Source: Antedon mediterranea (Eukaryota; Animalia; Echinodermata). From it: DNA of 64,000 nucleotides. Location: NCBI RefSeq assembly GCF_964355755.1, contig NC_092670.1:12944795-13008794 (forward strand), read 5' to 3'. The translations under genes and the position numbers were made by a program. The notes under the pieces are model-generated. The model saw only the letters and a program-made list of their open reading frames with translations. It had not been told where the DNA came from and searched no databases. Shown here in pieces: positions 22,391-50,098 of this stretch (the first letter of the stretch is position 1; each line of letters begins with the position of its first letter).

Positions 22391-25300
22391 CTTAGATAAT
22401 TTGATGTCAACTTCTTCAACTTCTTTCAGAGAATTCGTGTCGGCAACGAGTCTTCCAATGTTAGATAATACGGGTCTTGGTGGTGGGGTACAATCACTGA
22501 TGAAATAGAATTTGTGATATTGTTGGGCAAAAGGAGCATTTGGTATACACTTGCTACATAATTTTCAAAGATATAGGTATTTACCAATTACAAAGGATGA
22601 AAATGAGAATAAAAGAATGGTGGAAGATGAGGAAGAGAGAAGGAGGAGAAAGAGTAGGAAGAAGAACTATCACTTACCCATCCTCTTTTCGGAAACAGTC
22701 AATAAGGTTCCTGGCAGCAAATAATAAGGCTAGAATGTCTGGTTCTGAGAGGCTATACTCAATGTCATTCAGTTCTTGGATAGCCACATTTATTACCACT
22801 CTCGATCTAAATAATAAATCATTTCGTTTTGATGTCGTTATAGGTAGTTGTGACTTTCACCAGTCTGTTAAGTTAGCCCATATTACGTTCTTTTCTGATG
22901 TAAACATGGGAAAATATTCATCAAACCTTTAGAATAACCCCAGGTATAAACTTAACTGATATTATAACGGTATGAATTTAATTAGTTAAATGTGATAGTG
23001 AAACAAAGTTAGATTACTCTTGTTTGTCCGAAGCAGATTGCCATCTAAAGGTACACGTTTGTTTGATTAAACACTACTGTCTTAGTCTTAAAGAAGAACA
23101 AAAGTTTTTATTCAGAACTTACTGCATAATTAAAGAAGACCATACTGCATCAGCCGTTGACACGTGATAGTAAACCGTATGGAAGTAGGATGGCTTCTTA
23201 GGCAGGCTATGAATTTGGATTGGAAATATTACTGGGTTCTTCTCTGTGCGATGACGGCATAAGGCAATGTTGAAATCTTCAATACAATCATGTGACTCAA
23301 TGTAGTTCGGTGACACAAAGGTTACGATCTTCGTTGCGTTATCCAGCAGATGTCTCATCTCTTGCGCAGATGCAGCTTCTTCGACAACCGGGAGAGACGG
23401 CGCAAAGTATTTCATAAGCCCGTAGAAAAACTTTGCATACTTCTTGTCGTTAGAAGAAAAGCTTAAGACGATGTTATTGATTTCGTTTGCAGGTTTCAGC
23501 CGCTTGCTGTCGCGAAGGAATAGCAGGGTTGCTAACTTCCATTTTTTATGAAGATTGTGCATTTTGTGACAAAAGCACCAAATTTGGCACAAACCTTCTT
23601 TAGGGTATATCTAACAATCCTAGAAGGGGTGCCCAAAAATCGGAACAATTTAACGACGTCATTTGGACCACGCCCTTTTTTTAGTATTACGTAATTAGGA
23701 GAAAACTTACATTTCGTATATACATACCAAGTTTGGTATCAAATTAAAACTCATGACATGTACATTGCAATACACACATAAAAAATATATGATTTCTCTT
23801 CAGACGGAATATATAGGTCAAATAATGTAATTTTCTGTCATATTGAAGGGGATTTCAATCAAAACGCGCCAATATTGTGCTATGTTATGAACATTGTAGT
23901 TATAAGAACAACAACATTCATTTTTGTAATAGAACTACTAATATATATTTATCCTGTACCAGTTACCGTACTTTCCTTTAACATAATATTAGGAACCACT
24001 GAAAAAAAGTATATAAAACATATATATAAGTAAACAGACAAAAGACCATTTGACTGACAATTATGGCGTTAGCATCCATAACAATACATGGAGGTGATTA
24101 TCAACTTTACTTTTATGAAATTATTTATCTGGAATCAAACACTTATAATGGTACAGAGTTGCTAGATGACGAACAAGTTCCACGGCATGGGTAACAAAGA
24201 CCAGTGCAAGAAAGACCTGCTGAACGGCACTTGCAGTTCCCTGCAGCCACCCTTTAGCAATTCCCTACATGCTTTGGATGCTTCAGGTAGTATGGTCCAG
24301 ACTGGTGTCCATGTACTGCCAGTTTTAGTCCAACCAAAGTCTTCTGGTGATGGAGCATTCTGCTGTGGCTGTAGACTGGTGGTCCAATTGCTTGCTTGGT
24401 ATATGGATCTTTTGGAATGCTGTAAAAGTGCATCCTGCAATAAACAATTTAAAGATTGGTGTTACCTTTTAATGAAAGAAAAAAAATGAACCTGATAATA
24501 AATTATTAAACCACAATTGCTCCTCTTACCTGTGTAGGAGGAATGTTGTCCATTGTCCGTGCCTTTCTTAAAAAAGATCTTGTCTTAGCTTAGTAACACT
24601 TCTTAAAGTCTTGTAGTATAGATGACATGTAAACTCCTCTAGCAACTGGAATTGAGATGAGTTGACTCCTAGAGATTTGAAAAGGTGATGTGCCATGAAA
24701 AGAAAGGCTTCTGTGACTGCTGGAAATGAGTTCCACGTCTCCCATGCGGAGTGTTTTGCTTTTCCGAAGGGATGTACTGTAGTATCGGACCCAGTAAATG
24801 CATGAAAAACTGGCAGCTCTCTTAACTTATCCTCTCCTAGGTTATGGCAGATGGTATTTATATTAAAATATTGGAAGTGCTTACCCATGCCAAATGCGAC
24901 CCAGATACACGTACCAGGATAACAGGCTATTAGATTGCAGAAAATACCAACCAGGATAACAATGACATCAGTATCAACTGTACGCACCAAAATAACCCTG
25001 CTACCTTTTAATGCACATCCTGGAGTCGGCCTCTTCATGGTTGCAGATTGACATAGGTTGAGTAGATGTCCGGGATACATCAGACTCGCCTACAGGACAT
25101 ATATCAAGAATTACTTACTAATTTAATATGCCTTTTTAATTAATTATTGGTACGAAACTGTATAAGTAAATTAATCATTTGGTTACAAACAAAATAAATT
25201 AGTATGTATCATAATAAAACTTACCTGATGTAATGTAAACTTCTTTGCAGTCAGAGTAATCATGGGTAGACACCTTCGTAGTTAAAAAGTTAAATAACTC

Positions 25301-28300
25301 CTCTTTATTTACTGGATCTTTCAGAAAGTCTGGAAAATTCCATGGAATCTTTGTTTGTCCCCCAACTTTCCTCCTGACCCCTTTTCCTCTTTTTTTCTCT
25401 CTTGTAGACTGCTTAAGACTATCTGTTCTGTAAGTGTCCCACACTATATCAATTCTGTTACTATTCTGCAGCTGCTGTCTGGTCCACGGTAGAAAGACCT
25501 GTCATACAAATGATACAAGAATAATGATCCGCATATAGAAGTGACCAATTATGTGGTGGTTAAACAATAGATACAATCCTGAATGCAAAGAAATGTACTC
25601 ACCTTATCACCGTAGTCATAAAATGTAAATGCATGGTTGCTGGAAAGAGCATGGACAATAGCAGCTCCGTCAAACACCTTTACATCAAAATATGTAGGAG
25701 GTTCAGGCTGGCCTTCAGTCTCCAAATGCTGTAGCAAATCAGACTTCTTAGTTGGTAGTCGAAGCTTTCCATTTACTGCCAAAGAGGGTGGCCATGGCTG
25801 GTTTTAATGCATGAAGAAGTCTTCCAAATCTCCATCACGAGATTGACTTGCAATATACAGTCGACTGAATAGGCTGCAGTCACTTTTTAAACTCTTAACT
25901 TGTTGCTTTGTTTTGGACACTGATTTTTACCGTGGTGTGTTGAACAACGGCAGCTTATTCTGTTTGATGGCTTGTTGAATTGCAACACTTCTGTCGAGAA
26001 TAACTTCCTTGAAATATTTTTGGTACTGGGTAGTACCTACATCCTGAATTGTACGAACTGTCACTACTGGACTTTCATTGTCACAATCTCGAGCATCCAA
26101 GACCAGAAGTTCTGAACAATTATCGAGGAATGGGTTGCCTGCATTTGAAATTGTTTTGTGTAGCCTGTTGACCTGAACTTTAAATGTTTCTTGGGTAGAG
26201 AGTCCTTGTTCTCGTTGCTGAAAGTCATTCGGATCATAAACCATGAACTGACTCTCGAACTCTGTAATCAGTCTCGCTTGTTCTGGCTCCGCCACCATCC
26301 ACCTCTTAAACGCTGTTGGATTTTCTGTAAGTCCGACTGCACCCCCAGTTCCTTTTACTAATTCGTTGTTCTGCTCATGAGATTGGTCAATGGGCATACA
26401 GGAGAACTTTCTTGTTGTTTTTTAAATAACCCAGAACTTCTTAAAATCTTCTTTGATGTTTACAGGTAGTGTATTCATGTCCCTAATGTGGATGGGAATT
26501 GCCTTTTTGCTCAGGGAACTGCAAGTGCCGTTCAGCAGGTCTTTCTTGCACTGGTCTTTGTTACCCATGCCGTGGAACTTGTTCGTCATCTAGCAACTCT
26601 GTACCATTATAAGTGTTTGTTTCCAGATAAATAATTTCATAAAAGTAAAGTTGATAATCACCTCCATGTATTATTATGGATACTAACGCCATAATTGTCA
26701 GTCAAATAGATCTTTTGTCTGTTTACTTTGTCCAGTGATTATTTAGTCAAGTTTGATACAGTACGGTATATGTTTTATATACTTTTTTTCAGTGGTTCCT
26801 AATATTATGTTAAAGGAAAGTAACTGGTACAGGATAAATATATATTAGTAGTTTTATTACAAAAATGAATGTTGTGGTTCTTATAACTACTGTACAATGT
26901 TCATAACATAGCACAATATTGGCGCGTTTTGATTGAAATCCCCTTCAATATGACAGATAATTACATTATTTGACCTATATATTCCGTCTGAAGAGAAATC
27001 ATATATTTTGTATGTGTGTATTGCAATGTACATGTCATGAGTTTTAATTTGATACCAAACTTGGTATGTATATACGAAATTTAAGTTTTCTCCTAATTAC
27101 GTAATACTAAAAAAAGGGCGTGGTCCAAATGACGTCCTTAAATTGTTCCGATTTTTGGGCACCCCTTCTAGGATTGTTAGATATACCCTAAAGAAGGTTT
27201 GTGCCAAATTTGGTGCTTTTGTCACAAAGTGCACAAAAAAAGTGCTAAGTTACCCTGCTAGAAGAAGCTATCGAGATCTGGTGGGAAATCTGTGTAGGGC
27301 TTTCGCGATTTATCTGGGTAAGGTTTGCTTAATTGGAATGCTCGTAGGTCTTCTTGTACAATATCTATATTCTTCTCTGATGACTGCCAAAAAAATAAAA
27401 AAAGAATTCGTAAAACGGAGATAATCACATATACATAGTCGTACTTTTGTTTATAGCTCTTAACAAACTAAAACTTTTCAAATATATATTATTTTCATAC
27501 AATTTTTAAGTAATAGGAATCGTGTAAACTTTGTTTTCCCTAAAACTTTACATTTCCATCCAATGATTGGTCGATTCTATGGTGTATCTAATTAATGTGA
27601 TAGTGTGTCAAATTCCTAGATACATCGTGACATGTGACATTATTTATACCACCCATTATATATTGATGTCTGTGGCGGATATGAGACGCTGTATCACGGA
27701 ACTTTAAGATGTAGCATGCCTACACAGAATCAGGTTGGCCTATTACGGTTATTGTCTAAACCTAGTTCAGACTGACAAACTTTTCTTTGCAAATTCAAGC
27801 AACCTGCGAACAGTTTTGTTAGTGTAGACCAGTTGACAAACTTCGGTAAACTGCGGAAAACATGTTTGCAGAAGTCTACACTAGGACAATTTTGCAAACT
27901 AGAGAAAACTAAAATATGGTATGGTGTACTAGAGCAAAACAGATTCTAAATGGTATGCATTTTACCTTTGCAAATATTTCTTTAGTGTTTTTAGTAGACT
28001 CCTTGTTGAAATAAGAGACGATTGCATCTGCAGTAGATTCTATGGCAGACTTAAATGATTTACCAACAGCGTTCACCAACTTGATTTGTTTAAATTCTAA
28101 TGGAATATCCTGGACATCCTCATCCAAAAAGATCGGAATCAGTGTCAAATCTCGATTCTAAAAATTAAAATCACTATTATTAGTACGCAAGTATCTATTA
28201 TATAAAAGAACATATCCCAGAGGGGGATGCGGAGAAGAAGAAGAAAAAGGAGGAGTAAGAGAAGGTGGAAAATGAAGATAATGAGATAGAGGAGAAAATC

Positions 28301-31300
28301 GAAGAATAGAAAGATGAGATAAAAGAGGAAGAAAAGGAGAAGAAAGAGAAAGGGGAGTAAGAGAAGGTGGAAAAGGAAGATAATGAGATAGAAGAGAAAA
28401 ACGAAGAAGAGAAAGATGAGATGAAAGAGGAAGAAAATTAGGAAAGGAGGAGTAAGAGAAGGTGGAAAAGAAAGGTAATGAGATAGAGGAGAAAAAAGGT
28501 GAAGAGAAGGATGAGATAAAAGAAGATATAGAGGAGAAAAATGAGGAAAATTAGGAGAAAGAGAATGAAAGGGAGGAGTAAGAGAAGGAGAAAAACAAAG
28601 AAGAGGAGGATGCGATAAAGAGGATATAGAGGAAGAAAATAAGAAATAGGAGAAAGAGAAGGAAAAGGAGGAGTAAGAGAATGTGGAAAAGGAAGATAAT
28701 GAGATAGAGGAGAAAATCTAAGAAGAGGAGGATGCAATAAAAGAGGATATAGAGGAAGACAATGAAGAATACTAGGAGAAGACAGAGAAGGAAAAGAAGG
28801 AGAATAAAGAAGCTGAGGATGATGAGGAGTGGAAAGAGGCCTGCAGACGAAGAAATATCAAGATAATAAGGAAAATGACGGACGAAGGAGCAAGAGATAG
28901 AGAAAGAAGGATGTGGAAGAGCTAACTGAATCTGTACGTGTACCCAATCACTTCTATTCTAAATATTACTGAATTCTATCTATATTTGATATTATTAATA
29001 AACATACCTTTTGAGAATGTTTTGCAAGCGCCAAGTTAAACTCTTCTCTGCAAACAGGTGACTTCAGATAATCTTTGGTTACCATTGCAACTAGCATCGT
29101 GCTGCCATCTATGGCATGGTATAAAGTCTGTTGCCAAGTAGTTCCTATAAATGTGATATTATTAATTTATTTTAATTACGCAAATAAATGGCACTGTTCT
29201 ATTCCATTACTTGTTGTATTACGTCATATTAAATTTTCAATGTTTAAATGTAATTATGTTGTCTGACGTCATATTATAGCTTCACGTGATGAAAGGTCTG
29301 AAATGGTTGAAATAATTATGAATGATGTACCGGTCTTAAGCTCTTGTGTGTCGAAAAAGACCTTCAGATTTTGGTCGAGCTTGGTCAAGATTTCTCTGAG
29401 CTGGGCAGCTTGCTCGGTGTTACGATGGCAGTACGAGATAAAGACGTCATACTCCAGTGTAGGGTGTTCATGTATCTCTGCATGTACGTCAACATTTAAC
29501 GTCAACGCAAGTTGCTCACAAGCATGGCTAATCTTCACTCTTCTGTAAATAACAACAAAATATGTATTGTTAATCACAGCGATAGAAAAGTATTCATTAG
29601 TATCTCGCTATCATATAAAACCTGCCAGTATACATACACCTATATTGTATGTACTGTATCTTAACATGTTCAGTTTGTTAGGAAAGTTTCTTGATACACA
29701 GGGCCGGGGCATGTTTATCACGTGTGACACTGTGTTTAGGAATTTGTATTATGACAACAAACAAACATGGCATTGCACATAATACTATATGTATAAATCT
29801 TTGTTTTTTATTTACTTACAAACAATCAATATATTGTACGAGTCCCATGTATGTTGGCATTTTCTGCACTTGTTCAATATAGAACGGAGCAAGTAGATCT
29901 CGTCGAGCCTTCCTGTTGCAGCATAATGCTATGTTGTACTGTTCGACACATGGTGTTGATTTTAGGTAACTGGGGCTTAGTACTGGAGAAAAACAAGAAA
30001 TTAAAAAAAAATGTATTTGCGATTTTACGAAAATGTAAAAGTGTTTTAGTCAAAAGCTTTTGGAAGTGTTGTTTGTGCGCGGAGAATTGACAGGAAAAAT
30101 CGATAATTAAATTAATTTTTCTTTAAATATTTATATAAATTATGAAAAGTTTTTCGTGGGAATTAGAGAACATGTATTTGGACAAAACAATGTACTTATG
30201 TTTTGAAATACGAAGATATAATTTCGTTCCTTTTATCGACCTCATAAGTATTATTATTTAATTTGCATGCCAATTTGCATCAAGCATACTACATGTGCGT
30301 GTTTGTGCATGTTCATTGTGGTAGTGTATGATGCAGCCACTTATTTGTTTGTGTTGGATTACCTTGCTTATTTGGTGTATATAATTAGAAGAAGTATTAC
30401 ATAAAGGAACTGATATACCATATTAATGTAATTCGTTATGTGCGTATGTAAGCGAGAAGGACAAGATAATGCTTTTGTAAAGTTCTACCGGCGCGCTCCA
30501 TCACATACTATTTTGTTTCACTGGATTTACTTTTTGGATATATACAAAATATGGAGAACAGAAGAACATCATTTGTCTTATTTCCTCTTTGTTTTCTGAG
30601 TTAACTGAAGCAACTATTGAATGGATTATTAAGTAAGGTAGGTGCAGTTATTTTTTAGTTAGTGTGTATTGTCAAGAAAATGTATCTCAATCGGCAATGC
30701 TTAGGAAAAACCAGTCGTGTTTTAATATGGCGTTTATTGTCGCGAGTAATTTACGTTAGCATTTGCGAGTAGAGAACTGGCGGAGCCTGGTTTGGATTGG
30801 TCGGTTAAAAATAATGAAGAGTAGGCCTATATTTTGGAAGTATCCATACACAGACACATAACAAAATATTTAATATTTGTTACAAAGTACTAACAGTGCA
30901 ATGGTCTGTGCAATATAGGAGGTTTTGTCGATGTAGGCTTATTTCGCATGACGGTATCAAACTGTTTTCGAATTCGGCGGGCACCCAAATACAATTGAAT
31001 TTAAATGCCTTTATTTTGTACGTTTTGTACCGGTACTGTTCAATCATCTAAGCATTTATAATAAAGTTAGGCCTACCTGTGATGACCCTAGCACACCTGA
31101 TCATGACTTCATACATGTCTTCCTGCCATACTTGGTCTTCTTTCAGCTCTTGCTGACTGCCAAAGATGCGAATATCGGGCTTAACAACTGCCAAGTGTTT
31201 GCTAATAGAACTCGCAGTTTCTCCATCCTCCTTGCTAAATGACAGGTATACATCAAACTCTATCTTCACTTTCTAAAATCAATGACGTCATAAGTAAAAT

Positions 31301-33290
31301 ATTTGTGCTAATATCTTTCTAATTACAATTGCTTTCCACTATTTCATTACTGTCATTTACAGGGTGTTTTCTATTAGTATTATTTTTACTTTTCCTATTT
31401 GTTGAGGCCTTCCTCTCGACCGTCTTACGTTTCTGTTTAATCAGTTTAGTGCAATCAAACACAATTGCTATACAATGAAAACACGAACACTAAAATGGAT
31501 GGACACATATACAAATAAAATGCAATCTTTCCTCAAAAAGTAATTAAAAAAAAAAATTGAAATATTTAGTTATTGCCGTAACAAAAACGCGTTTTTCTTA
31601 GACTTTACAGTACCTTTGGTATAACACTTTTCATGTCAAACTTCATCTTCAATTCTTTAAACTGTTCACACACTTCTTCAAGGCCTCTCATAGGTGGAGG
31701 ATCACCGGCTTCAAAGCAAGCGTAGAGCACAATCTTTAGCTTGCGGAGTGGCAGCCCTGCTTTCATCCAGTTTACGGCTGCCTCTACCATTCCTTTTAAC
31801 ATTAGCACTTTACTTCGTCCCTGATAAAAGTAGAAACAACTTGTGTTTTATGATATATTAATGACGTCTCATATGAAGTAGAATTGTCTTCATTTCCAAA
31901 GTACCCGTCTTTAAAAAAAAAGAAATAGGAGCAGAGAGGACCCATGATCACTCCTGCCAAGCAGAACAGGAATGACGATTCCTTTCCTCTGGCCCTCTAC
32001 ATCCTCTCTTTATTTCTGTATTTTACCAACTAAATTCCCTTCCCTTGATAGAAAAGTCCAAATTAGTTCTTGATGTTCACCACACCCTATCAACACACTA
32101 GTAGCACCATCGGTATTGTTTAAAACGTAATACGATTTCTATTTTACCTGGTCACCTGTGTTCAGCAGAGGTGTAATGACTGTGCCATCCTGGTTGTTAA
32201 GAACTGGAACCAAACAACGATATACGTCCGCAACAAGTTCCTGTGGTTTAGATTTCCCGTGACTTAAATAAATGATTTAACCATCGTTAGATAATTATGC
32301 TTCAAGCTCACATGGTACATCTGTGCCGTATAATTATGTACACAGTACATTGTATTTATATACAATATACATACTTGGCCTACTTGGGGGTATCTATTTG
32401 TTTCGTACTGAATAATTAGGCCTACGTCTTTTTGTTTTACCGAATGCATCCTAAGTAGGCTATATTTGAATGAATAAATTGAAATTAAAACTCACTATCT
32501 GGTCTCAAAGCAAAGAAGCCGTCTGTATGGCAAATGATCCGGTAGTGGATGGGACCACCAGCATGAGTAGAGGTTGCGAAGATCTTCTGCTTTATTTTTT
32601 GCCAGTTCTCTGACGTTTAGATTTAAGTTTCGCTTCAGAGCACCAATAACTGAGGTCGGTGTTGCTAAATAATCGCCTAACATATAAAATATGGGATTAA
32701 CAGAATTAGAAGAATTAGAATTCGCCTACACTTTCAATACCTCATTATTACAGTGTTTACATACAGTATTTTTTATTGAGCCTATCCCGATCGAGTTAAT
32801 GCCTTTTTTGAATTAAAAATATTTTTCTCATAAAGTAACCATGTCTTTCAAGATGTGCTTTTTTTTGTCGTCATAGGCCTACTTTTGTTGTGACACTTTT
32901 CATGTCAAAACTTTTTTAATCAAACTTAAATTTCCAGAGAGAGGCATAAAAACAATGTAATAGGAATACAATGAGTGCTGCAAAATAAACGAACATTCAC
33001 AGAAGTATGACATCACAATACAAATAGATACACTTATTAGAACATCAGATCAGAGAACGAGAACATTGCCAAATAATGTCATCGTAGTACCAGTAGGCCT
33101 GCATTTCTACATGAGCTAGGCCTACGCTAGATGCTATAACTAACATACCTCTGAATGCTGAAATCATTATCACGTCTACTTTATCTTGTTGTTCAAGTTT
33201 AGTGATGTCCCCAAAACATAAATCGATCTCACAACTGCCATTTTGCGTTATAACGGTTATTGTATCGGAGACAACAAATCCAGCAACCAT
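22391..33290 (-). CDS. Macro-TIR-TIR-TIR gene, copy A, interrupted in exon 10 by an Academ element (predicted 556-aa Macro-TIR-TIR product, or pseudogene); exons 33290..33149, 32676..32496, 32262..32148, 31820..31614, 31272..31077, 29982..29820, 29542..29331, 29144..29008, 28157..27966, 27383..27261 + 23517..23123, 22806..22678, 22496..22391; possible terminal exon 20146..20126
   Basis: Exon-by-exon paralog of copy B with the same intron phases. Macro-like LCFGDITKL..VDVIMISAF..TPLLNTGDQG; TIR starts FDVYLSFS, YDVFISYCH, NIVLSFS. Confidence 0.85.
23521..27260 (-). mobile_element. AcademX-type DNA transposon, internally deleted and rearranged, degenerate transposase
   Basis: Termini TAGCAGGGT...ACCCTGCTA; 3-bp TSD GAA (23518-23520, 27261-27263); about 720-bp inverted arms. 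ORF remnants PIDQSHEQNN..KGTGGAVGLTEN..RW, DGAAIVH, VRTVDTDV, FHAFTGSDT (XPG-like), QDALLQHSKR..YQA..W and a Cys-rich tail. Confidence 0.9.
28225..28920. repeat. Purine-rich (GA) low-complexity intronic tract with internal duplications
   Basis: Recurrent GGAGTAAGAGAAGGTGGAAAA...GATAATGAGATAGAGGAGAAAA blocks. Confidence 0.85.
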
Positions 33291-34544: not shown

Positions 34545-35390
34545 TAAATTCCATGGTTATCCCGAATTCCATGGTTATCCTGGAATCGATGGTTTTATAC
34601 ATGTATTCCATTCTACGGTTATACTGCATTAAATCCTTTTTTCATGGTTATCCTTGATTATTGTTATCCTGTTTCCATGGTTATCGTTTAATACATGATC
34701 AATATCCTGGATTCCATGGTTATCTGTTTCTATAGGCCTACGTGTCTTCCATGGTTATCCTATGATCGTGCATTCTATTGTTGAGTATTATTTCCAATAT
34801 TATGATTGAAAAAAGATTCTATCGTGATCCTGGATGCCATGGTGATCCTGGATGCCATGGTGATCCTGAATTCCATGGTTATCCTGGATGCCATGGTGAT
34901 CCTAGATGCCATGGTTATCCTGGATGCCATGGTGATCCTGAATTCTATCGTGATCCTGGATGCCATGGTGATCCTGAATACTATGGTTATCCTGGATGCC
35001 ATGGTGATCCTGAATACTATGGTTATCCTGGATGCCATGGTGATCCTGAATTCCATGGTTATCCTAGATGCCATGGTTATCCTCATGCCATGGTGATCCT
35101 GAATTCTATCGTGATCCTGGATGCCATGGTGATCCTGAATTCCATGGTTATCCTAGATGCCATGGTTATCCTGGATGCCATGGTCCTGAATTCCATGGTT
35201 ATCGGGATGCCATAGTGATCCTGAATGCCATGGTGATCCTAAATTCCATGGTTATTGGGATGCCATGGTGATTCTAAATGGCATGGTTATCGGGGTGCCA
35301 TGGTGATCCTGAATTCCATGGTTATCCTGGAGGTTATCCTGGATGCCATCCATGGTGATCCTGAATTCCTGGTTTCATGGATGTCATGGT
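34545..35390. repeat. 18-bp minisatellite (CCATGGTKATCCTGGATG / CCATGGTGATCCTGAATT), degenerate at its left edge
   Basis: Direct inspection. Confidence 0.9.
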
Positions 35391-35709
35391 GATTATGCCG
35401 AATCCCATTTTGGGGATTATGCCGAATCCCATTTTGGGGATTATGCCGAATCCCATTTTGGGGATTATGCCGAATTCCATTTTGGGGATTATGCCGAATC
35501 CCATTTTGGGGATTATGCCGAATCCCATTTTGGGGATTATGCCGAATCCCATTTTGGGGATTATGCCGAATTCCATTTTGGGGATTATGCCGAATTCCAT
35601 TTTGGGGATTATGCCGAATCCCATTTTGGGGATTATGCCGAATTCCATTTTGGGGATTATGCCGAATCCCATTTGGGGGATTATGCCGAATCCCATTTTG
35701 GGGATTATG
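35390..35709. repeat. 24-bp minisatellite (GATTATGCCGAATYCCATTTTGGG), about 13 copies
   Basis: Direct inspection; 8-residue periodicity in the spurious ORFs (GDYAESHF). Confidence 0.9.
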
Positions 35710-36906
35710 TTCTATATTTAGTAGTTTTATTTATGTTAATAAATATTCATGGTTGGCTGTCAGAAGATCAACACGCTCATATTCCATGAGTTGTCTTTAA
35801 TTGGAGACAGACATCTACAATTACTTTCTATTTTTAAGGTTCTATAGTGCATTTATTAATAGGAAAACAATTCACAATGTACGTTACATGACTAACCTGG
35901 TCCCAAAAGGTCTTTAATTAGAGGTAGACTTCTTAGGTATCAATATTGTCATTATTATAAAAACAATTGTGCAGCATTGGCAGGAAACACAGAATGATTG
36001 ATAGTAAAAATAAAATAATAATTATACTGTATATAACAATTCAAGTACTAAGTAGGCCTACAGTAAAGTTAAAACGTCTAAAAAATAAAAGTTTTTACAT
36101 TTTATATAAAATCTATATCATATTAAAAATATTTACAATAAATATCAGAGGTTTGCAACAAATAGATAAAATTTGTTGATGTATAGATAGATAAAATAAA
36201 ATTAGTTGAGGTATATATTAAAAAATCCGCTATTTGATAGAGTAGAAAAAAATAAATAACCCGCAGCAACGTCACTAAATTTGTTTCCACTATAAACGCT
36301 TATCATTCCTCTCTGGCTATTTACTAATTATTACATTTTGATACTATCTTTTCAATTTAAACTACGATCTAGTTCATGTTTAATACCCAAAGACTGTTAC
36401 TGTCAAAGTAAAATATCAAATTTAAATATGATCACCTAAAGGTATGATATATATTACTGTACACATATTTCGATTACTTATCTAGTGTGCAGATAACAAA
36501 AATGTTTCCACACACATTAATGCACATTACAAAGATTGTACTGTTGTAATCATGACACATTATTATTATTGAGGGTATCTTAGCCAAGGATTTTTCTTTA
36601 AAGTATAATTTTGAATGTTTAAGTGAAATTTTTATTTTTGGTTTCGATCTTCTATCGAATTGTGAAAATGCTTTATTGTTTTATTATGTACAACAATTTC
36701 TTGTTAATTCTGGAAGATTTGATTGATGTTTCAGTTGATTTTTTGTTTTAAAATGTTATATTTGTTAATCTAAGACGCCTTGAAGCTAAGGTGGTTCCAC
36801 CTTGTAAGGCGCCTCTGTGTAATATACTGAATAAAAAAAAAAATCATGACATAGAATTGAACCCAAGAGCCTGGGGGATTCGACAGTATTACCGCAAAAT
36901 TGCTCA

Positions 36907-39900
36907 TTATAAGAAGAGGCACATTTTCGTTTTTTTGTCACCAGGAGGTGTACTATTTGTGTTGTGTACATCAGGTGTTTTCATGTCGTTGTCAGGTTTT
37001 TTCACATCGTCATCAGGTGTTTTCACATCATCATCAGGTGTTTTCACATCGTTTTCTAATTTCTTTGGTGAAGCTTCTTCATTGCTTTCTCCTCCTTGCA
37101 CTTCTGTATTCTTTCCCAAAGTTTCTTCAGGAAGACTTGCATTGACTTCAGTTTTCATATTCCCATTCTCATTCAGATCCAATTTTTCTTCATCTTCCGG
37201 TTCCTTTAACTCGGTAATCATACTTTCATCCTTCTTTATGTCCTTTTTATCGTTTTCTTCATTCAAAATTTCTTCTGGTTTTAAGTCTTCCTCAGATATC
37301 TCAACTTGTATCAGCATCTGATTGAAAGAAAGTATACTAGTTAAAAATGTAACTTTCTTCCAAAACAATTAACTGAAAATAATACTATTTATATTTCCAA
37401 CCCTTTAATTTTTCTGAAGTACAGTGTTACATATGTATCACATGTGAGAGCTGTATCATAGCATTACACTGGAAAAATTATGCCATATGTGGAGACTTCG
37501 AGTGAAAGTCTACAACCTTCCAAGTGGGTTTCTTAGTAAGCAAATTCAAGGCCTACCTGTGTTAGATTTTTAACACCAAGATCAGTTGCTTTATTCAGTT
37601 CTTTTGTGTCAATGATGAGCCTACCGATGTTGGACAAGACAGGTCTTGGTGGTGAGGTGCAAGTACTATTACTACAAACAAAAACACCCATAATTGATTA
37701 GAGTAACATTAAAGGAAAAATTATCTTTATCTTCTGGGATTTTAAACCTGTCTTAGCACACAAACTTATAACACATAAATAAAATGTAGTAGATGTAGTT
37801 TGGATGAAATCTAAGAATCAGCTTATCAGGGTGTATTTGTACCTTTGTGAAATAAACAAGTCTGTAACAATATCTGTACTAGACAATAAGTTAACGTACC
37901 TTTCGTTGCGGAAGCTGTCAACAAGTTTCCTGGCAGCAAATAGTAAAGCTAATATTTCAGAATTTGACACACTGAGGTTCATTTCTACAATGGACTCATG
38001 TATGGTGACCCTATTTCTGAAAAAAAAGAAAATGAAATTTAAAAAATTGTGTTACAATTTTATGTGGTAAAGAAGATGGGTTTCTAAACAATTCCTAAAA
38101 GATGATTAACATTTGAGACTTATATTGTATACATGTATAGTCTTTATTTTTGTGGTAGTAGGTAAATGACATTACTTACTTGTTTGTTAGAGTATACCAA
38201 ACTTTGTCTGTTGTAGCAACGTTGTAGTACACGGCATGAAAGTATGTTGGCTTCATAGGCAGCTCATGAACCTGTATTGGAAATATCACAGGGCTTTTTT
38301 GTGTACGATGGCGACATAACGCAATGTTAAAATCTTCAGCGCAGTCGTGTGACTCAGTATAGGTCGGCGAGACAAACGTCACAATTTTAGTTGCACTGTC
38401 TAGAAGACCTCTCATCTCTTGTGCAGATTTTACTTCACCAACCACTGACAAAGATGGTGCAAGGAATTTCAGAAGTCTGGTGAAAGATACAGCATATTTG
38501 TTATCATTCTTTGCAAAGCTTAAGACAATGTCACAGGTTTTCTCTTCGTCGGAAGCTTCAGGATGGGTGTAATTCTTAAGAAAGAAGCTATCAAGATCTG
38601 GTGGAAAGCTCTTGTAGGATATTCTGGTGTTGTCTGGGTACTTGACAGACAACTGAGATTCTCGTAAATGTTCTTGTACGCCATCCATTGTCATGCTGTC
38701 TACAGACTGAAAGAAAAGATTTGCTTTTATATAACTTTTAAAAGGGTTCAGTATGCCATTTAAGATATCCAAAAGAATGTGTTGTTTTCGATAATTACCT
38801 CTGTGAAAAGTTCCTTCAAGCTTTCAGTGGAATGATTTTGTAGGTATGAGACAATTGCCTTTGCAGTAGATTGGATTGCAGGTAAAAACGCTTTACCAGA
38901 TGCATTCACCAACTTAATTAGTTTAAACTCCAATGGAATGTCTTTGACGTTTTCATCCAGAAAAATTGGAACCAGTGTTAGTTCTCTATTCTGTGTGTGA
39001 AAAATCCAGTAGTTACATAATAAAATAAATTAATTATTCGTCAGTCACCAAATGATGTCTCACAGTATTTTTACGGTTGTTGAACAAGTCAACCTAATGG
39101 TGTGGCTGGAATGCAAAGAAATATCTCTTATATCTCATATTAAAATGTGGTGAACACCAACAGATTTTTGCAGGTCTACTGTTATGTATATGAATATTTT
39201 TAAACTACCTTTTGAGAATGCTTATCGAGTGCCAAATTGAACTCTTCTCTGCAAACTGGTGACTTCAAATATTCTTTTGTTACCAAGGCAACTAGAACTT
39301 TGCTCCCATCAATAGCATGATATAACGTTTGTTGCCACGAAGTGCCTAGAAATTAAACAAATTTGAAATGCTTACACATTTTGTTTACTATGTTTATTAA
39401 ACTTGGGGTTTGGAAAAAGTTGAAATTACCTGTCTTAAGCTCTTGTGTGTCAAAGAACACCTTTAAACTTGGATCAAGAAGGGTAATACTTTCTCTGAGC
39501 TGCGAGGCTTGTTTGGTATTACGATGACAGTATGATATAAAGACGTCATATTCCAGTGTTGGATGTTCTTGTATTTCAGCATGTATTTTAACGTTTAGTG
39601 TCAATACCAGCTGTTCACATGCAATGTCTAAATTTATGTTACTAAAATTGATAAAGATAAATATTTTTAAATTAAACACTACCTTTGAAATATATATTGG
39701 AGAACATGGAAAATGGCCAAAATAGTAGGTTTCTGCCATTGGCTAAAAGTAAAAAATCTAATCTCCTTTTCTTTCCATGCAAAACTCTGTTTAAAAAAAA
39801 AAATATTATTCTTGCACGCCCATAGAAGTTGGCAAGTTTCCTATACTTGATTTTTTTCTCATAAACTTATATTTAGGCTTTATTGTATATGGGCAGACAT

Positions 39901-42900
39901 GCATTTTTTTTATAGATTAGTTTCCACTAAGGTCTTTGCATCATTTTCTGTAGCACCAGTCACGTAACTTACTGTTACTAAGGGTCTTTCACACCTGTTC
40001 CGACATGGTTTGGATCCGGCGCCGGAAAATTTGATTTCATGACGCTCCACGCGGCTATGCGCATATTGATTGGTGCATAGCCGCGTGGAGCGTCAGAATA
40101 TCAAATTTTTAAATGAAAACAAAACATTAACGTTCGATTTGCCGGTCCAGCACCATGCCAGAGCAGGTGCGAAAGATCCTCTATTGTGTACACTTACAGG
40201 CAATCTATATACTGTACCAGCCCCATGTAAGTCGGCATATTCTCAATCTGCTCGATATAAAATGGAGCCAGTAGTTCTCTCTGAGACTTCCTGTTGCAAC
40301 ATAATGCTATGTTGTATTGCTCAACACATGATGTTGAGTTTAAATAACTAGGACTGAGAACTGAAATAAAAAATGTATGATTTAGGTTAAAAATACCATC
40401 AACGTACACAGGCTCTATGATGGCCATAATATTATCCTTAAATGAATTTCCAAGCATATTTCATTCACACAACTTTATTTACTATACTGTTTTGTGTAAG
40501 TTTACATAATTTAATAAATTACAGCTATTTTTATGAATTACAGCTAATTTTATTTGTGTGTAGAAAAAAAAAAAATACATTGACAAATATGATTTGTTTA
40601 GGGATAAGATGAAAGGTGTTTGGTCTCTGGTAAATGTTATTATTATCTGTCTCCTGACCACAATATAGTGATTCTATTCTATAAAATATTGTACTTTGCA
40701 CACTCAAATCCTAATATGTCCTACAATAAATTGAAGTTAGGCCTACCTGTTATTACCCTAGCACACCTAATCATGACTTCATACATGTCTTCCTGCCACA
40801 CTTCATTGCTGTTCAGTTCTTGCTGACTGCCAAAGATGCGAATGTCAGGCTTACAAGCTTGCAGGTGTGTGCGAATGGAGCTTGCAGTATTTTCATCCTG
40901 CTTGCTAACTGATAGGTAAACATCGTACTCAATCTTCACATTCTAAAAGAAGTTATAAATTAAAAGAAATAATTTGGAGAATGATGTTTAAAGTTAAAGT
41001 TCAAGCTTTCTATAAACAATATATATTAACCTTTGGTACAACACTCTTCATGTCATATTTGTTCTTCAGTTCATTGAACTTTGCACATATATCTTTAAAC
41101 CCTCCCATTGGTGGAGGGCTACCTTCTTCAAATCTGACATAGAGCACGATCTTTAGCTTGCGTAGTGGGAGTCCAGCTTTCATCCAGTTTACAGCCGCGT
41201 TCACCATTCCTTTTAACATTATTACTTTATCATGTCCCTGAAGAAAGAGAAATTGATAAAAATGAGAAAAACACATAACATAGCTAATGGCTGAAAGATG
41301 ACTTGAGACGACTTGTGTTTTTAATTCCAAGCATTTAGTCAATATTATTTATTGGAAGAATTTCATCTGGTTGTGGAATAGGTATTACATAAAATTTCTT
41401 TTTGAACAACCAAAAATAGTATAAGCGAACTTACAGTACGTTTCGAAACCTATCAGGTTTCATTCTAAACTGGCGTTTCATCGTCTAGCGTTGTTAATCC
41501 CATGATGATGACGTCATTTTTTTTTGGTTGTTCAAAAAGAAATTTTATGTAATATTATTTATGTTTCCTTACTTGGTCACCCGTGGTCAGCATAGGTGTA
41601 ATAACTGTGCCATCTTGGTTGTTTAGAACGGGAACCAAACAACGAAACACGTCTCCAACAAGCTTCTGAGGTTGTGATCCTCCAAGCCTAAACAATAACA
41701 AATTAGTGTTGTATTCATAGTATAAAGAAGAGTCTCAGCTTAAAATTGGTACCTTTCCAACCACAAAAACTAATATTGCTTTGATGTGGCTTACAAACCT
41801 GCACACCATTGGTGGTATATATGGCTATACTGCGTTGAAACACCGGTTCTCATCAGATCACCAAAGTTGGGCCCGGTTGCGTTCTGGATGGGAGACCGTC
41901 TAGAAATCGCGGCGGGTGCTGTATATACTGGAGAGTAATGGTAATATCGGACTAGCATGTGATAGGCATGGGTTCGAGGTTATCTGTACCATACTAATTG
42001 TATCTTTAGGCAAGATGCTTTACTGTCATTGCCTCGTCCTTCGGATGGGATGTAAAGCCGTTGGTCCCGTGTACTTAACAGTGCATGTTAAAGAACTTGG
42101 TACACTATTCGAAAAGAGTAGGGGATCGTCTCCCGGTGTGCTGATCTGGTAGGCGCTGCACTGCTGGCTGCCGTGGGTCCGTAGAGGGCCTAATCCGAAT
42201 CTCCTAATTTTCCAGTTAAGCTTGAGGACTAAGATAATTACCTTTACCTTTACCTTGTTTTAAAAACAGTGGTAGATTCAGGATTTAAACAATTTTAAGG
42301 CCAACCTCCTAACAATTGAAATTTGAGAACCAAGCCTAGTGCTTTATATCTTAAAGTTTCAACAATAAGGCCCTCCAATCCCATTTGATTTGGCTGAAAA
42401 GGAACTTGCCTTATTTCTGTCTCAAAGCACAGAAGTCGCTTATAAGGCAAAGTAGCAGGCAGCTCATGAGACCACCAGCATGAGTACAGGTTACGAAGAT
42501 CTTCTGCTTTATTTCGCGCCAGTTCTCTAACATTTAAACCCAGGTTCCGCTGCAATGCTCCGATGACCGATGTTGGTGTCGCAGAATAGTCGCCTATATT
42601 GGAAAAGATTATTTTCATCAATCAAACATTTAAAAGTTGGTCTTTATTTTTTTTGGAATAAGATTATTTGTATAATACAATTAATATTCAGCCTTTTTAA
42701 TTTGTGGTTTGTTGGTTTCAGATGGCAAAGACCATCTTTTGGATGGGACATAAAGACATTGGTCCCGTGTACGATTGGGATGGGTGTCTGCCTGGCCCAT
42801 GGATCATTATATAGTGATGGATGGTTGTTGATGTTTTGTGAACACGTGCAGATGTTTCTTATCCTCTACTGCATTTATAGTGATTTTCGGAATAATTTAT

Positions 42901-43046
42901 GTACCTCTAAACGCTGATATCAGTATCACATCAACCTTATCTTGATAGTGAAGTTTAGTGATGTCCCCAAAACACAATTGGATTTCACAATTTCCATTCT
43001 GTGTTACCACAGTGATAGTCTCATGGACAACAAATCCAGCAACCAT
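36907..43046 (-). CDS. Macro-TIR-TIR-TIR protein with acidic tail and C-terminal CaaX, copy B, intact, about 905 aa; exons 43046..42905, 42593..42410, 41687..41573, 41237..41031, 40942..40747, 40360..40198, 39641..39430, 39345..39209, 38990..38799, 38706..38180, 38016..37900, 37671..37557, 37317..36907
   Basis: Exon lengths sum to 2718 nt in consistent phase. Macro-like N-terminus (GDITKL, VDVILISAF, TPMLTTGDQG). Three TIRs: YDVYLSVS..SPSYLNSTSCVEQY; YDVFISYCH..FFDTQELKTG..YLKSPVCREEF; DIVLSFA..SPTYTESHDCAEDF. Ends KKTKMCLFL*. Confidence 0.88.
39981..40179. mobile_element. Palindromic MITE (PIF/Harbinger-like termini) in an intron of copy B
   Basis: Imperfect TIR GGTCTTTCACACCTG...CAGGTGCGAAAGATCC and a perfect inner IR TGACGCTCCACGCGGCTATGC/GCATAGCCGCGTGGAGCGTCA. 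Confidence 0.65.
41385..41553. repeat. Short inverted-repeat element (33-bp arms ATTACATAAAATTTCTTTTTGAACAACCAAAAA)
   Basis: Perfect reverse-complement arms around a core of about 100 bp. Confidence 0.7.
41815..42255 (+). mobile_element. SINE3: 5S rRNA-derived head, degenerate tRNA-like segment, Deu/Nin-like core, (CCTTTA)n tail
   Basis: GCGTTGAAACACCGGTTCTCATCAGATCACCAAAGTT...GGATGGGAGACCG...GGGTGCTGTA resembles 5S with an internal deletion. It is followed by CCTTCGGATGGGATGTAAAGCCGTTGGTCCC...CGAAAAGAGTAGGGG. Confidence 0.75.
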
Positions 43047-45288: not shown

Positions 45289-48200
45289 CTAATGACATTG
45301 TATTGTCATTGATGCTTTCCTCCTCAATGATGCGTGCATAGAACTAATATCATCGTCTTTATCGTCAGGATCACCGTCATCTTCGGATCCGGAATCTGGC
45401 TTAATATAACAGTTACAATCTTGAAGAAACATAATACTCAATTAGTACAAAATGATAATATTAAGAAAAATATTTTCTAATGTAATAATAATGGTTCTTA
45501 GTGATACCTGTAGTAACGTAAGCTTGGGTCAATTAAAATTCCATTCAACACTAGGACTAAGCGCAATGACGTAAGCACAACGCAAGAGAGTTCACCAATG
45601 ACAAGCAACAGTTCAAATAATTCCTTGCTCGTGATTGCGTTGCGTTGAAGTGGAAACCACGCGTCTGTACTCTCTGTTTAATAGCAAATATCTTTGTTTC
45701 TACTACCAAATATTGATGTTCCGATATCCGGATCTGAATTTTGTTTAATCTCTAACAAATTTAGGATAGGCCTACCTTCAATTTCTTCCTTTACTAAATT
45801 TGCTGCCTGCAAGATGTCAGCGTCTTCCAGAAACTGCTGAAGTGGTTTGAGCAAGTCAAGTGTGTTCCCACAAGTGTCGTTAACAGCCGTGTAAAGGTTT
45901 ATAGCAAAAGACTGGTAGTATGGTAATGTTCTAAAATTGGTTGACTGTGCGTCACTGAAGTCGAAAGCAAGCCTACAGAACTGAAGCCAATGACCAGGTT
46001 GTCCAAACTCTGTTATCATATTGAAACGATTTCTGGACAGGAGAGCAGGGATTGTGCGCAAGTCTTTTTCCCATACAGAAGCTCTACCATGAATCTATAA
46101 GAAGAAGAACGCTGTAAAGAATTCGACAATAGCACTAGAGCACACATCGAAAATCTGGTAATTTTATTTCCCACTAGTCCACTTTTTGTATTTCCAATAG
46201 GGTTTGGATTGGATGGATTTATCACCGAGTCATAATTTCACGGAAAGGTCTGTATTGTAGCTTCTTCGGTTTATGGCGAAGATCGTACCATTGTGGCCCT
46301 TTCTGAACTTGATGTCACAAAACGTATACAAATTCCATAAAGCACACGTGTTTCCACCAGTTCAACAAATCTACTAACTGTTCATTATTGTCTACTAAAG
46401 TAAAACTTTAACTGAACATTAGACACATATATACGGATATTAACAAGAAGATATTAATACAACCTTTGCTAAATACCTACGTGTTTTAATGCATCTTTTC
46501 GTGTTATATTTAAGTTGAAACTGCCTTGCTTAAGTTCTTGGCGACATTCAATAGAAGCATTTCTGTACACGGTACTAGGGACTTTGAACGAAAACATGGT
46601 AAACGTTTGTCGACCACAGAGTATATTTCCAATATGTATTTTCTAAAATATAAATGAAACAGTTATAGGATTATATAATTTACAATATTTACAAAATATA
46701 ATTTATTAATTAGGCATGCGTAAAATTATTGACAGCTGTTTCCAATCTGTTCATTTGCAACGATTTACAGTGTAATGTGAACATCATCGTACATCTGTAA
46801 ATGGAACGGTGAAGTAGAATACTTGAAAACATCCCGTGTGTTCATTTTATCACGTGATTTTAAAAACACCAGTTTGTGAACTGAGCATTACTTTATGCAA
46901 CACAAAGCATTACCTCCTCTTTTCCAAACAACTTCATTATCAGAAACTCCCCTCCTAGCTGGTTTAACAATATCGTTTTTTCAGCCCATTCCTAAATTGA
47001 GTATTGTAAATATTTTAATTAGCACGAAAATTATGAAGATCTTACAATAAACTATTTTTATACGACACGGTAATTTTCCATTTTCAATTAGTTGTTCATG
47101 TATGCATTGAACAACATTTACAGTACAGAAAGAAATAGTAGTCCGTGTTCACCGGTGCCACCTCTTATGTGAGGCATAATTAGACATTGCTTATCATCAG
47201 AACACTAATGTAATGCTTTATAAAGTTTCATTCATTCATTTATTTGGACAAAATAAAAAATTACAAAATAAAAATACAAAAAGAAAAAGATTACAAGTAA
47301 TAAACAAGAAATTTTATAAAATTCAATAAAACTGAACATTTTTTATTGTTTTAGACTTACATTTTCATTTGTTGTGTCTTCTATCTTCCTTACACTGATT
47401 GACAGTTCGTCACTACTTACGTCACCAATGACTGCCGATATCTTCACGGTTATAAAATGGTCAATTGGAATGTCGTAGAGACCCTCACAGTCTGTAATGT
47501 TTTTACGCTTAGGACTTCCAATGAGTTTGAAATCCGTTACGTGATTCAATTTCTGTAATGTGTGAATCCATCTTGTTTCCTGTTTTATCGAAATACTTTT
47601 CGACTTTAAAGGCTCCCAACTTGTATCGTTTGATCGTCTGACTTTTGGCTCATACGTCCACTCACTGCCATCAACCATATACAAATCAATTGTTAGAAAA
47701 ATAGATTGTTGGAGTTCAGTCACTGGTCCAACTACAATAACTGGACTAACCTGGTACTGCATACATACACCCCCAACTTGTCTGGTGTTCGCAGGGTCAT
47801 TGCCAACCTGGTAGAGAAACAAAACTGTAGGCTGCTTCAACGCTCCATTCGGTATTGTCAAGTGCGCTCCATTTACTGTCAGCGTTCCTCCGTCTTCCGT
47901 AAACAGGCCAGCAGAGAAATTATCCTGCTTAAAGTTGGTGTCGGAAGGATGAGATGTATAGTAAATATGAGACAGAAACCCTTCGTATCGAAAGGCTAAA
48001 CCACTGATATTTGTTTCGATGTGTGTCGGAATATTTGATTCGGAAAGGTCGCTCCGCTGAACCTGAAAACAAGAATTCAAAGGGATTAACATTAGCATCC
48101 ATTAGATTCATAGACACTGTATATGTTTCTATTTGATAAAATACAGACTAGTGGTGGAATGGACAGACAGAAAACACTACCAAAGCGATAGTACTATCGT

Positions 48201-49154
48201 TGAAGTGGATAATAATAGTATAAAGGATGACTAGGAATTTTGCCCAATTATGACTATGAAGTAAATTATTTTTTCTACTTGAAGTCATGTCTTTTTAAGA
48301 TTATCTTATAGTATATGCCTACTTATAATTAGTCTCACCTTTGGAGTCATGCATTCATAATTATCGTCTTTTGAAATAATTGGTGGTACGGTTATAACCG
48401 GACATGTTATCGATTTCTTTAATTTGGGTAGTGTGGCAGGTGGCCGCCTGTTCTTCTTCACGTCATCAATCTTAGCATATGGATTGGCCTCACCCTTGTT
48501 TGTCTGGCTATTTTCAATTACGTCAAACGCTTCATCTTGTATTGTTTTAAGTCCTTTTGTTCTGTGTTTAGGTAATGTATCATTTTCTTTTTTTAATAAG
48601 TCTTCATTTTGTTCCAATCGATCTTTCTTTCCGAATTTTTTTATTCTTGTAACTGTAGAGAGACCCACGTATCCATTATTTATGTCTCCAGCATCTAACT
48701 CATCCTGCGTATCACATTCAGTTTGGTAGTTGGTAGAAATCGTCATACTATTTTCTTTATCAGATGATGTTACATTTTGATATAATGTTTTTTCATATAT
48801 GTTCTCGGGTTTTTGTCCAACTCTGTCTATTAGCTTATTTCTTTCTGTGTTTATTCCTACAATTTGTGCCATATCTGTGTAACCATTAATGACGTCACCA
48901 CTCTCAAAGTTACGTAACTGACTATCGGTATTTTCATCTTTTGTTGGTTTCACCCGTCTCAGTCGTTTTTTTGCGTCGAGAATATCTGATGTTGTCAATA
49001 TCATCTTTTTTTGAATATCTATTTCCGAATCGTTATTTTCGGTATTTGTAAATAACTGACCATGTATAACAGTAGGGATTGTTATATCAGATCCTCGTCT
49101 TCTATCTAGTTTGCGTCTCGGAATAACCTCCGTTTCTGTCATGCTATCAGCCAT
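45289..49154 (-). CDS. Cytoplasmic ZU5-UPA-like-death-like adaptor, copy 1, about 727 aa; exons 49154..48339, 48062..47361, 46991..46914, 46642..46481, 46094..45776, 45395..45289
   Basis: ZU5 motif GLFTEDGGTLTVNGAHLTIPNGAL...VSPVIVVGP...IFLTI, a beta-rich UPA-like segment, and a helical C-terminus HWLQFCRLAFDFS...LQQFLEDADILQAANLV. Phases match the paralog. The death-fold call is weaker than the ZU5 call. Confidence 0.75.
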
Positions 49155-49904
49155 GATGAACTTTGACCCTTGATGACCTTTCAAAAACCATAAAGTTGAC
49201 CTATTTTTCAAGTTTTCTACAGATAGAAAAAAAAGTTTTTTATTATACTCAAAACTAGATTGGCATTATTTCGTAACACAACTTTTGTAATAGAGGCTAT
49301 CGAAGTCAGTTCGTCATAATTATATACTACCATTAATGTACACTCCTACCGTAATTAGGTCCCAGTTACTTTAATGAAATTCTGTTGTATATAGGCCAAT
49401 AGTAGTAGTTTTACGAATATTCTAGGCTTCTTGTCCGCAAATATCTCCTACCTTAGTGTATTTGTCAACAAAATCATTCCAAGTTGTCAAACGTCACACG
49501 ACATAGTAGTGTATTATTCTCCACTTAGACCTACAGTGTACACCTTTTTTTCGATAATCCACAAAATGAGGAAGTAGGAGTTATGTACACGGAAACCATG
49601 TGAAAACGTACCGTATACTCAATGCTTTTATCAAGTGCTCAATATGACAATAACTCTTTTAGAAGTAACGTATAAAAGCATTTAGCCTAGAAGAATAACT
49701 CTTTTGTGATTCACTAAACTTGTTTTGTACTATGATAATACCCAACAAACGTGTAATCATCTTTTTATAGATTATACTCTGCAACCAGCGTTTTAAAAAG
49801 TGTAGTGGAATTCCCATAAGCTATGTATTTCAATATGTAAGAATGGTGAGTATGGTAATATAGTCATCCTCATCATCAATATATTGGACCTTAAAAACAA
49901 ACTT

Positions 49905-50098
49905 TGTCTTTTCCACTGCTGAAAACCAACATTAAATCCAATAATCTTTTCAATTTCCACTTAAAACTAAGATTAAATTCAACCATCTTTCCCATTTCCA
50001 CTTAAAACCAACATTAAATCCAACAATCTTTGCCATTTCCACTTAAAACCAAAATTAAATCCAATCATCTTTACATTTCCACTGAAAACCAGCATTAA
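49905..50098. repeat. About 41-bp degenerate tandem repeat (TTTCCACTTAAAACCAACATTAAATCCAAC...), about 5 copies
   Basis: Direct inspection. Confidence 0.75.

Follow-up and report, generated by a model that had tools for sequence, protein, structure and literature searches.

Which of the three TIR domains in one crinoid protein could act as an enzyme, and what do the other two contribute? The question arises from a window of 64,000 nucleotides of intron-containing animal DNA from Antedon mediterranea (assembly GCF_964355755.1, contig NC_092670.1; positions below are those of the window), which carries two paralogous genes, A and B, in tandem on the minus strand. The original prediction held that only the middle TIR keeps the catalytic Glu, that the resulting Q/E/D pattern is selected, and that one active TIR is flanked by two pseudo-enzymes. 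Residues, register, conservation, fold, splicing and relatives were read directly for gene B and its family. They point to another division of labour, in which TIR1 and TIR2 seem to complement each other as the two halves of one TIR site and TIR3 looks like a pseudo-enzyme for reasons other than its Asp.

The three TIR domains share one register

The following features of genes A and B were used.

43046..36907, minus strand: gene B, 13 coding exons, 905 amino acids, with a macrodomain, TIR1, TIR2, TIR3, a helical region, an acidic disordered tail and a CaaX motif; the model is identical to P0001
39637..40933, minus strand: TIR1, amino acids 220-338, with Gln in the catalytic column and no betaB Asp or BB-loop Gly; PxYMxxxQYxDC is kept
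38903..39556, minus strand: TIR2, amino acids 365-482, with a complete pocket (betaA F/S/Y, FxD, BB-loop G, alphaB W, C, E) and Val four before the Glu
38199..38538, minus strand: TIR3, amino acids 573-686, with a 7-residue BB-loop deletion and a degenerate pocket
40319-40317, minus strand: gene B Q296 (CAA), TIR1 catalytic column; Gln in 69 of 88 TIR1 domains
39244-39242, minus strand: gene B E441 (GAG), predicted catalytic Glu of TIR2; Glu in 88 of 89 TIR2 domains
38334-38332, minus strand: gene B D641 (GAT), TIR3 catalytic column; Asp confined to genes A and B
33290..22391, minus strand: gene A, the tandem paralog, equal to P0002 (772 amino acids); the span is without the short last exon, which was not located
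29941-29939, minus strand: gene A Q295 (CAG), TIR1
29043-29041, minus strand: gene A E440 (GAG), TIR2
23277-23275, minus strand: gene A D637 (GAT), TIR3

Pfam recognised three TIR stretches in the gene B protein, and Pfam, NCBIfam and PADLOC named no family beyond generic TIR. The six motifs on which the original prediction was built are all present in both genes as it gave them, and the codon positions it assigned to the two TIR2 Glu residues are exact. In an alignment of 343 domains, the Q, E and D residues of the three TIRs fall in a single column. The AlphaFold2 model (mean pLDDT 80.8) has the alphaC helices beginning five residues before the column residue, at 291, 436 and 636, and the betaC strands ending 13 residues before it, at 283, 428 and 628. 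V437 and E441 of TIR2 align with W82 and E86 of Roq1, and Roq1 W82 is equivalent to AbTir W204, four residues before the catalytic E208 (Manik et al., 10.1101/2022.05.07.491051). The RUN1 WCLDE Glu is the counterpart of the TIR3 Asp in a weak match (E 0.66). A register slip that would make the Glu two residues after the Cys catalytic was ruled out by the alignment and the secondary structure of the model. The S-x-x-C-x-x-E position originally proposed appears to hold on the same grounds, with the C+2 Glu predicted not to be the catalytic residue.

A Glu at the alphaC catalytic position is therefore found in TIR2 and not in TIR1, which has Gln, or in the TIR3s of genes A and B, which have Asp. 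The MyD88 TIR also has Gln in this column. The position four before the Glu, the equivalent of AbTir W204, is Val in 76, Met in 9 and Phe in 2 of the 89 TIR2s; the S-x-x-C-x-x-E motif is right in its residues but leaves out this Trp position.

The Asp of TIR3 is local to genes A and B

A search with amino acids 1-760 of P0001 gave 78 proteins, A and B included, which span echinoderms, hemichordates, molluscs, an annelid, nemerteans and cnidarians. In these 78 rows the TIR1 catalytic column holds Gln 63 times, Leu six times and Glu twice, with four singles and three gaps, and the TIR2 column holds Glu in 75. The TIR3 column is Glu in 67 rows (a count that includes one truncated, misaligned sequence), Asn in three and Asp in two, with three singles and three gaps. 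Taken together, 53 rows read Q/E/E and two read Q/E/D, the two being A and B themselves. The TIR3s of the third Antedon paralog (P0004, encoded outside the window) and of the crinoid Anneissia both have Glu. In a quick tree of the TIRs, the TIR3s of A and B are sisters with support 100, so that the Asp counts as one event inherited by shared descent and not as two observations. Thus, the Gln of TIR1 is old and family-wide and the Asp of TIR3 is local to A and B.

Q/E/D as a family signature was ruled out by these counts, and the selected pattern of the original prediction comes down to two sister paralogs in a family whose norm is Q/E/E. The statement that only the middle TIR keeps its Glu is true of A and B but does not extend to the family. 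A sea-star paralog group (P0023-P0025, P0027, P0030, P0040) has Leu in place of Gln in the TIR1 column.

TIR1, TIR2 and TIR3 group by position in the tree and alignment, and this includes two stramenopile-like proteins, the labyrinthulomycete P0105 and its sister P0209, whose patterns are H/E/A and S/E/G. Between A and B, dN/dS is 0.09-0.14 for all three TIRs and 0.33 for the linker (our own Nei-Gojobori script; dS is about 1.3, which makes these values rough). This suggests, roughly, that all three domains are under purifying selection. Changes at the catalytic Glu differ in their effects elsewhere: AbTir E208D has lowered activity and E208A is inactive (10.1101/2022.05.07.491051), and E-to-Q abolishes cyclic ADP-ribose (cADPR) production in animal TIRs (Hurieva et al., 10.64898/2026.04.20.719644). 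The Asp of TIR3 need not mean a dead site, because AbTir E208D retains reduced activity.

TIR1 and TIR2 look like complementary halves of a two-domain site

We compared 340 aligned TIRs, comprising 88 TIR1, 89 TIR2, 85 TIR3 and 78 single TIRs from the Macro-TIR relatives described below; three eukaryote-type rows (P0104, P0138, P0210) were left out of the single-TIR group. TIR2 is the sole TIR of the three with both the pocket residues and an intact BB loop. Its betaA Phe (83 of 89), Ser (88) and Tyr (85), betaB Asp (85), BB-loop Gly (89), alphaB Trp (88), Cys (89) and Glu (88) are nearly all retained. TIR1 has lost the betaB Asp, the BB-loop Gly and the Glu. The C-terminal motif of the single TIRs, PxYMxxxQYxDC, shows the reverse, being kept in TIR1 (Pro in 88, Tyr in 84 and Gln in 87 of 88) and lost in TIR2. 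When match to the single-TIR consensus was scored over 17 columns of the N-terminal half, TIR2 reached 0.82, TIR1 0.48 and TIR3 0.26; over 18 columns of the C-terminal half the values were 0.22, 0.66 and 0.33, respectively. The single TIRs themselves carry the Glu in 74 of 78 cases (43 of 43 in an aligned subset). By these sequence comparisons, TIR1 and TIR2 each appear to hold the half of a two-domain TIR site that the other lacks.

A complex prediction for TIR1 (amino acids 216-352) with TIR2 (amino acids 362-506), in which alignments were not used, scored 0.00 and is no evidence either way. The 53-amino-acid TIR1 exon gave chance matches only against PDB sequences.

TIR3 keeps Glu in 74 of 85 domains and the alphaC Ser in 75 of 85, and these residues would fit a TIR3 that is itself a working active site in most of the family, one that the Asp of A and B merely weakens, as the residual activity of AbTir E208D would allow. 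We regard this as improbable. The betaB-alphaB segment of TIR3 has a median of 13 residues against 20 in the other groups, the consequence of the 7-residue BB-loop deletion, and AbTir needs an intact BB loop for activity (10.1101/2022.05.07.491051). TIR3 has also lost the betaA Phe, betaB Asp, alphaB Trp and Cys, and the protist TIR3s carry Ala or Gly in the catalytic column. TIR3 thus looks like a pseudo-enzyme because of the loop deletion and the loss of Phe, Asp, Trp and Cys, and not because of its Asp. The original picture of one active TIR between two pseudo-enzymes would for the most part stand, in that TIR2 alone has a full pocket, but not on its Q/E/D basis, since TIR3 usually keeps its Glu.

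The gene B protein begins with a macrodomain and ends in a CaaX-type motif

Two further features of gene B lie outside the TIRs.

41066..42992, minus strand: macrodomain, amino acids 19-205, exons 1-4; the most conserved part of the family
36910..36921, minus strand: CaaX-type motif after basic residues at the C-terminus of gene B; predicted prenylation

Neither appeared in the original three-TIR picture, which also lacked the single-TIR Macro-TIR relatives. Pfam found no match in amino acids 1-215 of the gene B protein. Within the macrodomain, 39 of 186 columns are at least 90% conserved. Foldseek with the full model ranked macroH2A1.1 first (E 9e-7), and the model of a homolog, P0081, matched PARP14, PARP9, Af1521 and macroH2A at Z 16.2-16.8 and EcThsA at Z 12.5; the match to the PARP14 macrodomain (Z 16.8) had an rmsd of 3.1 over 180 aligned residues. 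Af1521 and PARP14 have the GD Asp and the TGxQG loop at the corresponding alignment positions, and all of 43 relatives share D24 and G139. We take the GD Asp and the Gly-containing diphosphate loop to have their usual roles in binding ADP-ribose. On the evidence of these models, the N-terminal domain is a macrodomain with ADP-ribose-binding motifs, for which binding is predicted.

Cys at position -4, in a CaaX-type end after an acidic disordered tail, was found in 45 of the 78 homologs. The motif is presumably a prenylation signal.

Single-TIR Macro-TIR relatives are bacterial where named

A search with the macrodomain gave 745 representatives at E <= 0.001, with 150 among the matches listed. 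Many of those listed are Macro-TIR proteins of about 340 amino acids with the same domain order and about 40-48% identity in the macrodomain. The few carriers that are named are bacterial (Xenobiia, Solimonas, Methylococcaceae), and Atlas clusters resembling these proteins are 84-100% bacterial. Between a bacterial Macro-TIR model and a mollusc cluster, the match extends over 328 residues with a TM score of 0.83. The TIR1 and TIR2 profiles score the single TIR about the same, and TIR1 occupies the position of that single TIR. In an unrooted quick tree, 25 eukaryote-type macrodomains split from 45 single-TIR ones with support 91, a tree that does not set the direction of any transfer.

The Macro-TIR is rare: among 401 genomes of the seed's phylum it was found in one, the seed itself, and no match was found in plasmids. 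One bacterial locus came from genome contigs, and 10 of 42 metagenome loci cover the macrodomain. Of the loci read by hand, L003 has ThsB_TIR and SLATT neighbours, L001 has DUF4062-NACHT-WD40 and VapD-like neighbours, and L012 has HEPN; the partial locus L006 showed no defence-like neighbour among those read. In L003 (104-2243), ThsB_TIR, SLATT/DUF4231 and Macro-TIR genes stand head to tail. The first two resemble the pair of type VII Thoeris, which is laid out as TIR plus SLATT (10.64898/2025.12.03.692087), and the Macro-TIR gene is additional to them. In nine proteins (P0096, P0106, P0108, P0145, P0156, P0174, P0181, P0194, P0198) the Macro-TIR is in one frame with HSP70, a Ser/Thr kinase, FHA, CHAT/AAA or a type VI secretion system (T6SS) sheath (VipA/VipB). 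Their architecture suggests that the Macro-TIR unit could be a portable effector module in microbes.

A tentative model and its alternatives

Our favoured model, at somewhat under even likelihood, is of an immune protein that is anchored in the membrane and cleaves NAD+. TIR2 would provide the pocket, TIR1 a predicted partner surface and TIR3 a likely non-catalytic scaffold; activity, TIR1-TIR2 contact, product, ligand, lipid anchor and immune role are all predicted components. The origin would be a Macro-TIR unit whose single TIR holds both halves, which TIR triplication would then have shared out. TIR2 would have retained the nicotinamide-ribose pocket, BB loop and Glu, TIR1 the betaD-betaE surface with its Glu changed to Gln, and TIR3 would have lost the BB loop. 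In TIR NADases the site is formed by two TIRs arranged head to tail, one supplying the pocket and BB loop and the other binding the adenine end (10.1101/2022.05.07.491051). For this reason we propose that TIR2 may dock on TIR1, either in cis or between chains clustered on the membrane via the predicted prenyl anchor. An aromatic residue four before the Glu is present in 12 of 12 TIRs with cyclic products (10.1101/2022.05.07.491051). Because TIR2, like the single TIRs, is without this residue linked to cyclisation, the predicted product is linear ADP-ribose or a conjugate, which is the class of ligand that macrodomains bind. The macrodomain might bind this product, or ADP-ribosylated partners, and so gate the enzyme.

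Several observations weigh against this proposal. Of 61 animal TIRs that carry the Glu, no more than 12 showed activity when expressed on their own, and TLR2 is inactive despite having it (10.64898/2026.04.20.719644). Four of the 88 TIR1s have Glu, and the Glu kept in 74 of 85 TIR3s is not needed by a dead site. The database model of gene A (P0002) is without a CaaX motif. Defence-like neighbours were present at three of the 10 full-length bacterial loci read by hand, most of them on short contigs. Finally, the C-terminal motif of TIR1 could instead be a macrodomain-docking face, because the Macro plus TIR arrangement looks conserved between the bacterial model and the mollusc cluster.

The last point belongs to a reading that retains most of the original model. 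TIR2 would be the sole enzyme, its site completed by another TIR2 in an oligomer; the TIR1 surface would dock the macrodomain, and TIR1 and TIR3 would be spacers or autoinhibitors. The conserved Macro plus TIR arrangement, the location of TIR1 where the single bacterial TIR sits and the purifying selection on all TIRs fit this reading, but TIR2 has lost the ancestral C-terminal surface (the 0.22 consensus match) expected for a head-to-tail TIR2-TIR2 site, and we consider it rather unlikely.

The inactive Glu-bearing TIRs, TLR2 and 49 of the 61 animal TIRs, bear on a third possibility, that the protein has no enzymatic role and instead acts as an adaptor or regulator in Toll-pathway signalling, in the manner of MyD88 or MAL, with structural Glu residues. 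The family profile matches the TIRs of TLR2, MyD88 and MAL as well as plant enzyme TIRs, and TIR2 is without the alphaC Trp. An adaptor does not readily account for the retention of nearly every pocket residue in TIR2 from cnidarians to echinoderms, when these are lost in TIR1 and TIR3, or for the fusion to a macrodomain, an ADP-ribose-binding fold. We judge it quite unlikely, and retain the two-domain TIR1-TIR2 site as our working model.

Relation to known TIR systems

The enzyme TIR assemblies (SARM1, plant Roq1/RUN1/L6, AbTir) share with the gene B protein the TIR fold, the register of TIR2 with Roq1, and the pocket and Glu; in those assemblies the site spans two TIRs (10.1101/2022.05.07.491051). 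The gene B protein differs in having three unequal TIRs per chain with complementary losses, Val for Trp before the Glu, and a macrodomain and CaaX motif where those proteins have ARM/SAM or NB-LRR domains.

In type II Thoeris, His-ADPR made by the TIR protein binds the Macro domain of the effector (10.64898/2025.12.03.692087), and the pairing of a TIR (ThsB) with a macrodomain (ThsA) is common to both systems. Here, however, Macro and TIRs are in one chain without a membrane-pore domain, and the macrodomain is closer to PARP14, PARP9 and macroH2A (Z 16-17) than to EcThsA. No PF20016 or Thoeris model matched at cut-off. In place of the type II layout, a bacterial operon with separate ThsB and transmembrane Macro effector ThsA, there is a single spliced animal gene. 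The gene A/B protein thus works like an enzyme TIR assembly, in so far as our model applies, and recalls type II Thoeris, yet it fails Thoeris membership. A bolder version of the model is a Thoeris-like ADP-ribose circuit within one animal protein, with a TIR2 pocket and TIR1 lid hard-wired from two subfunctionalised duplicates, an ADP-ribose signal to which its own macrodomain would respond as a feed-forward membrane sensor, conservation from cnidarians to echinoderms, and a matching bacterial Macro-TIR as candidate defence protein; this is unlikely in full.

In the single-TIR Macro-TIRs one TIR holds both halves and the Glu, there is no CaaX tail, and some are fused to further domains; no function in print was found for them. 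The MyD88 TIR resembles TIR1 in its catalytic-column Gln and has a similar betaD-betaE stretch, but the gene B protein has no death domain and its TIR1 belongs to the Macro-TIR lineage.

The ecTIR-DC families of Gerdol et al. 2017 are reportedly invertebrate-wide TIR proteins of unknown function. The Macro-triple-TIR family may be ecTIR-DC 8, a comparison made by domain cartoon. In Trichoplax, ecTIR-DC 8 has 1,082 amino acids and two annotated TIRs, with no macrodomain drawn (supplement of PMC6321704). No published description of the Macro-triple-TIR family was found in a search whose reach did not include Gerdol 2017, the amphioxus bbtTIRC paper or the tables of tested TIRs of Hurieva et al.

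TIR enzymes normally depend on ligand-driven oligomers, since two domains are needed for each site. Duplicated TIRs that keep complementary halves in one chain, if this is true, would be a simple testable model of the two-domain rule and of how pseudo-enzyme domains arise. The Macro-triple-TIR would also offer a candidate for NAD-based immune signalling across invertebrates, one that carries a predicted ADP-ribose-binding module of its own, and its small bacterial counterpart is open to phage assays. A screen that infers TIR activity from the Glu alone and uses single domains would misjudge TIR3 and might miss TIR2.

Gene models and other features of the window

The 13-exon model of gene B gives a protein without stops. 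Eight of its 12 introns are joined at the modelled boundaries by contigs of run X1, and a ninth is represented by adjacent pieces of one contig; X1 was guessed to be an RNA run, since its contigs follow exon bounds. Intron 2 is modelled as a GC-AG intron with a GC donor at 42410 (minus strand), which agrees with P0001 and is not among the X1 joints. High-copy inverted-repeat (MITE-like) elements lie inside gene B introns at 40026-40109 and 41383-41554.

Gene A is 72% identical to gene B over amino acids 1-765. It carries the following insertion.

23518..27260: DNA transposon of 3,743 nt in gene A exon 10, just before TIR3, with terminal inverted repeats of about 170 nt and a 3-bp target duplication

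The transposon puts an in-frame stop into gene A in this assembly. The insertion-free joint (23517 to 27261) is present in four of four runs from two samples, with the transposon at high depth, and the insertion is therefore polymorphic. Gene A as a fixed pseudogene was ruled out by these insertion-free joints. The element is multi-copy, its terminal inverted repeats begin with TAG, and its transposase-like frames are broken and without a Pfam match; we take it to resemble Academ elements.

Short-period tandem repeats between A and B (34775-35789) give spurious repetitive open reading frames (ORFs) on both strands. At 45678-54269 (minus strand) two similar gene pieces lie in tandem, each with a ZU5 match (47346-48098, E 2e-6; 52583-53158, E 2e-4) and with near-duplicate ORFs at 45678-46061 and 51031-51441. 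An exon of an organic anion transporter (OATP) gene was found at 17338-18114 (minus strand, E 3e-22).

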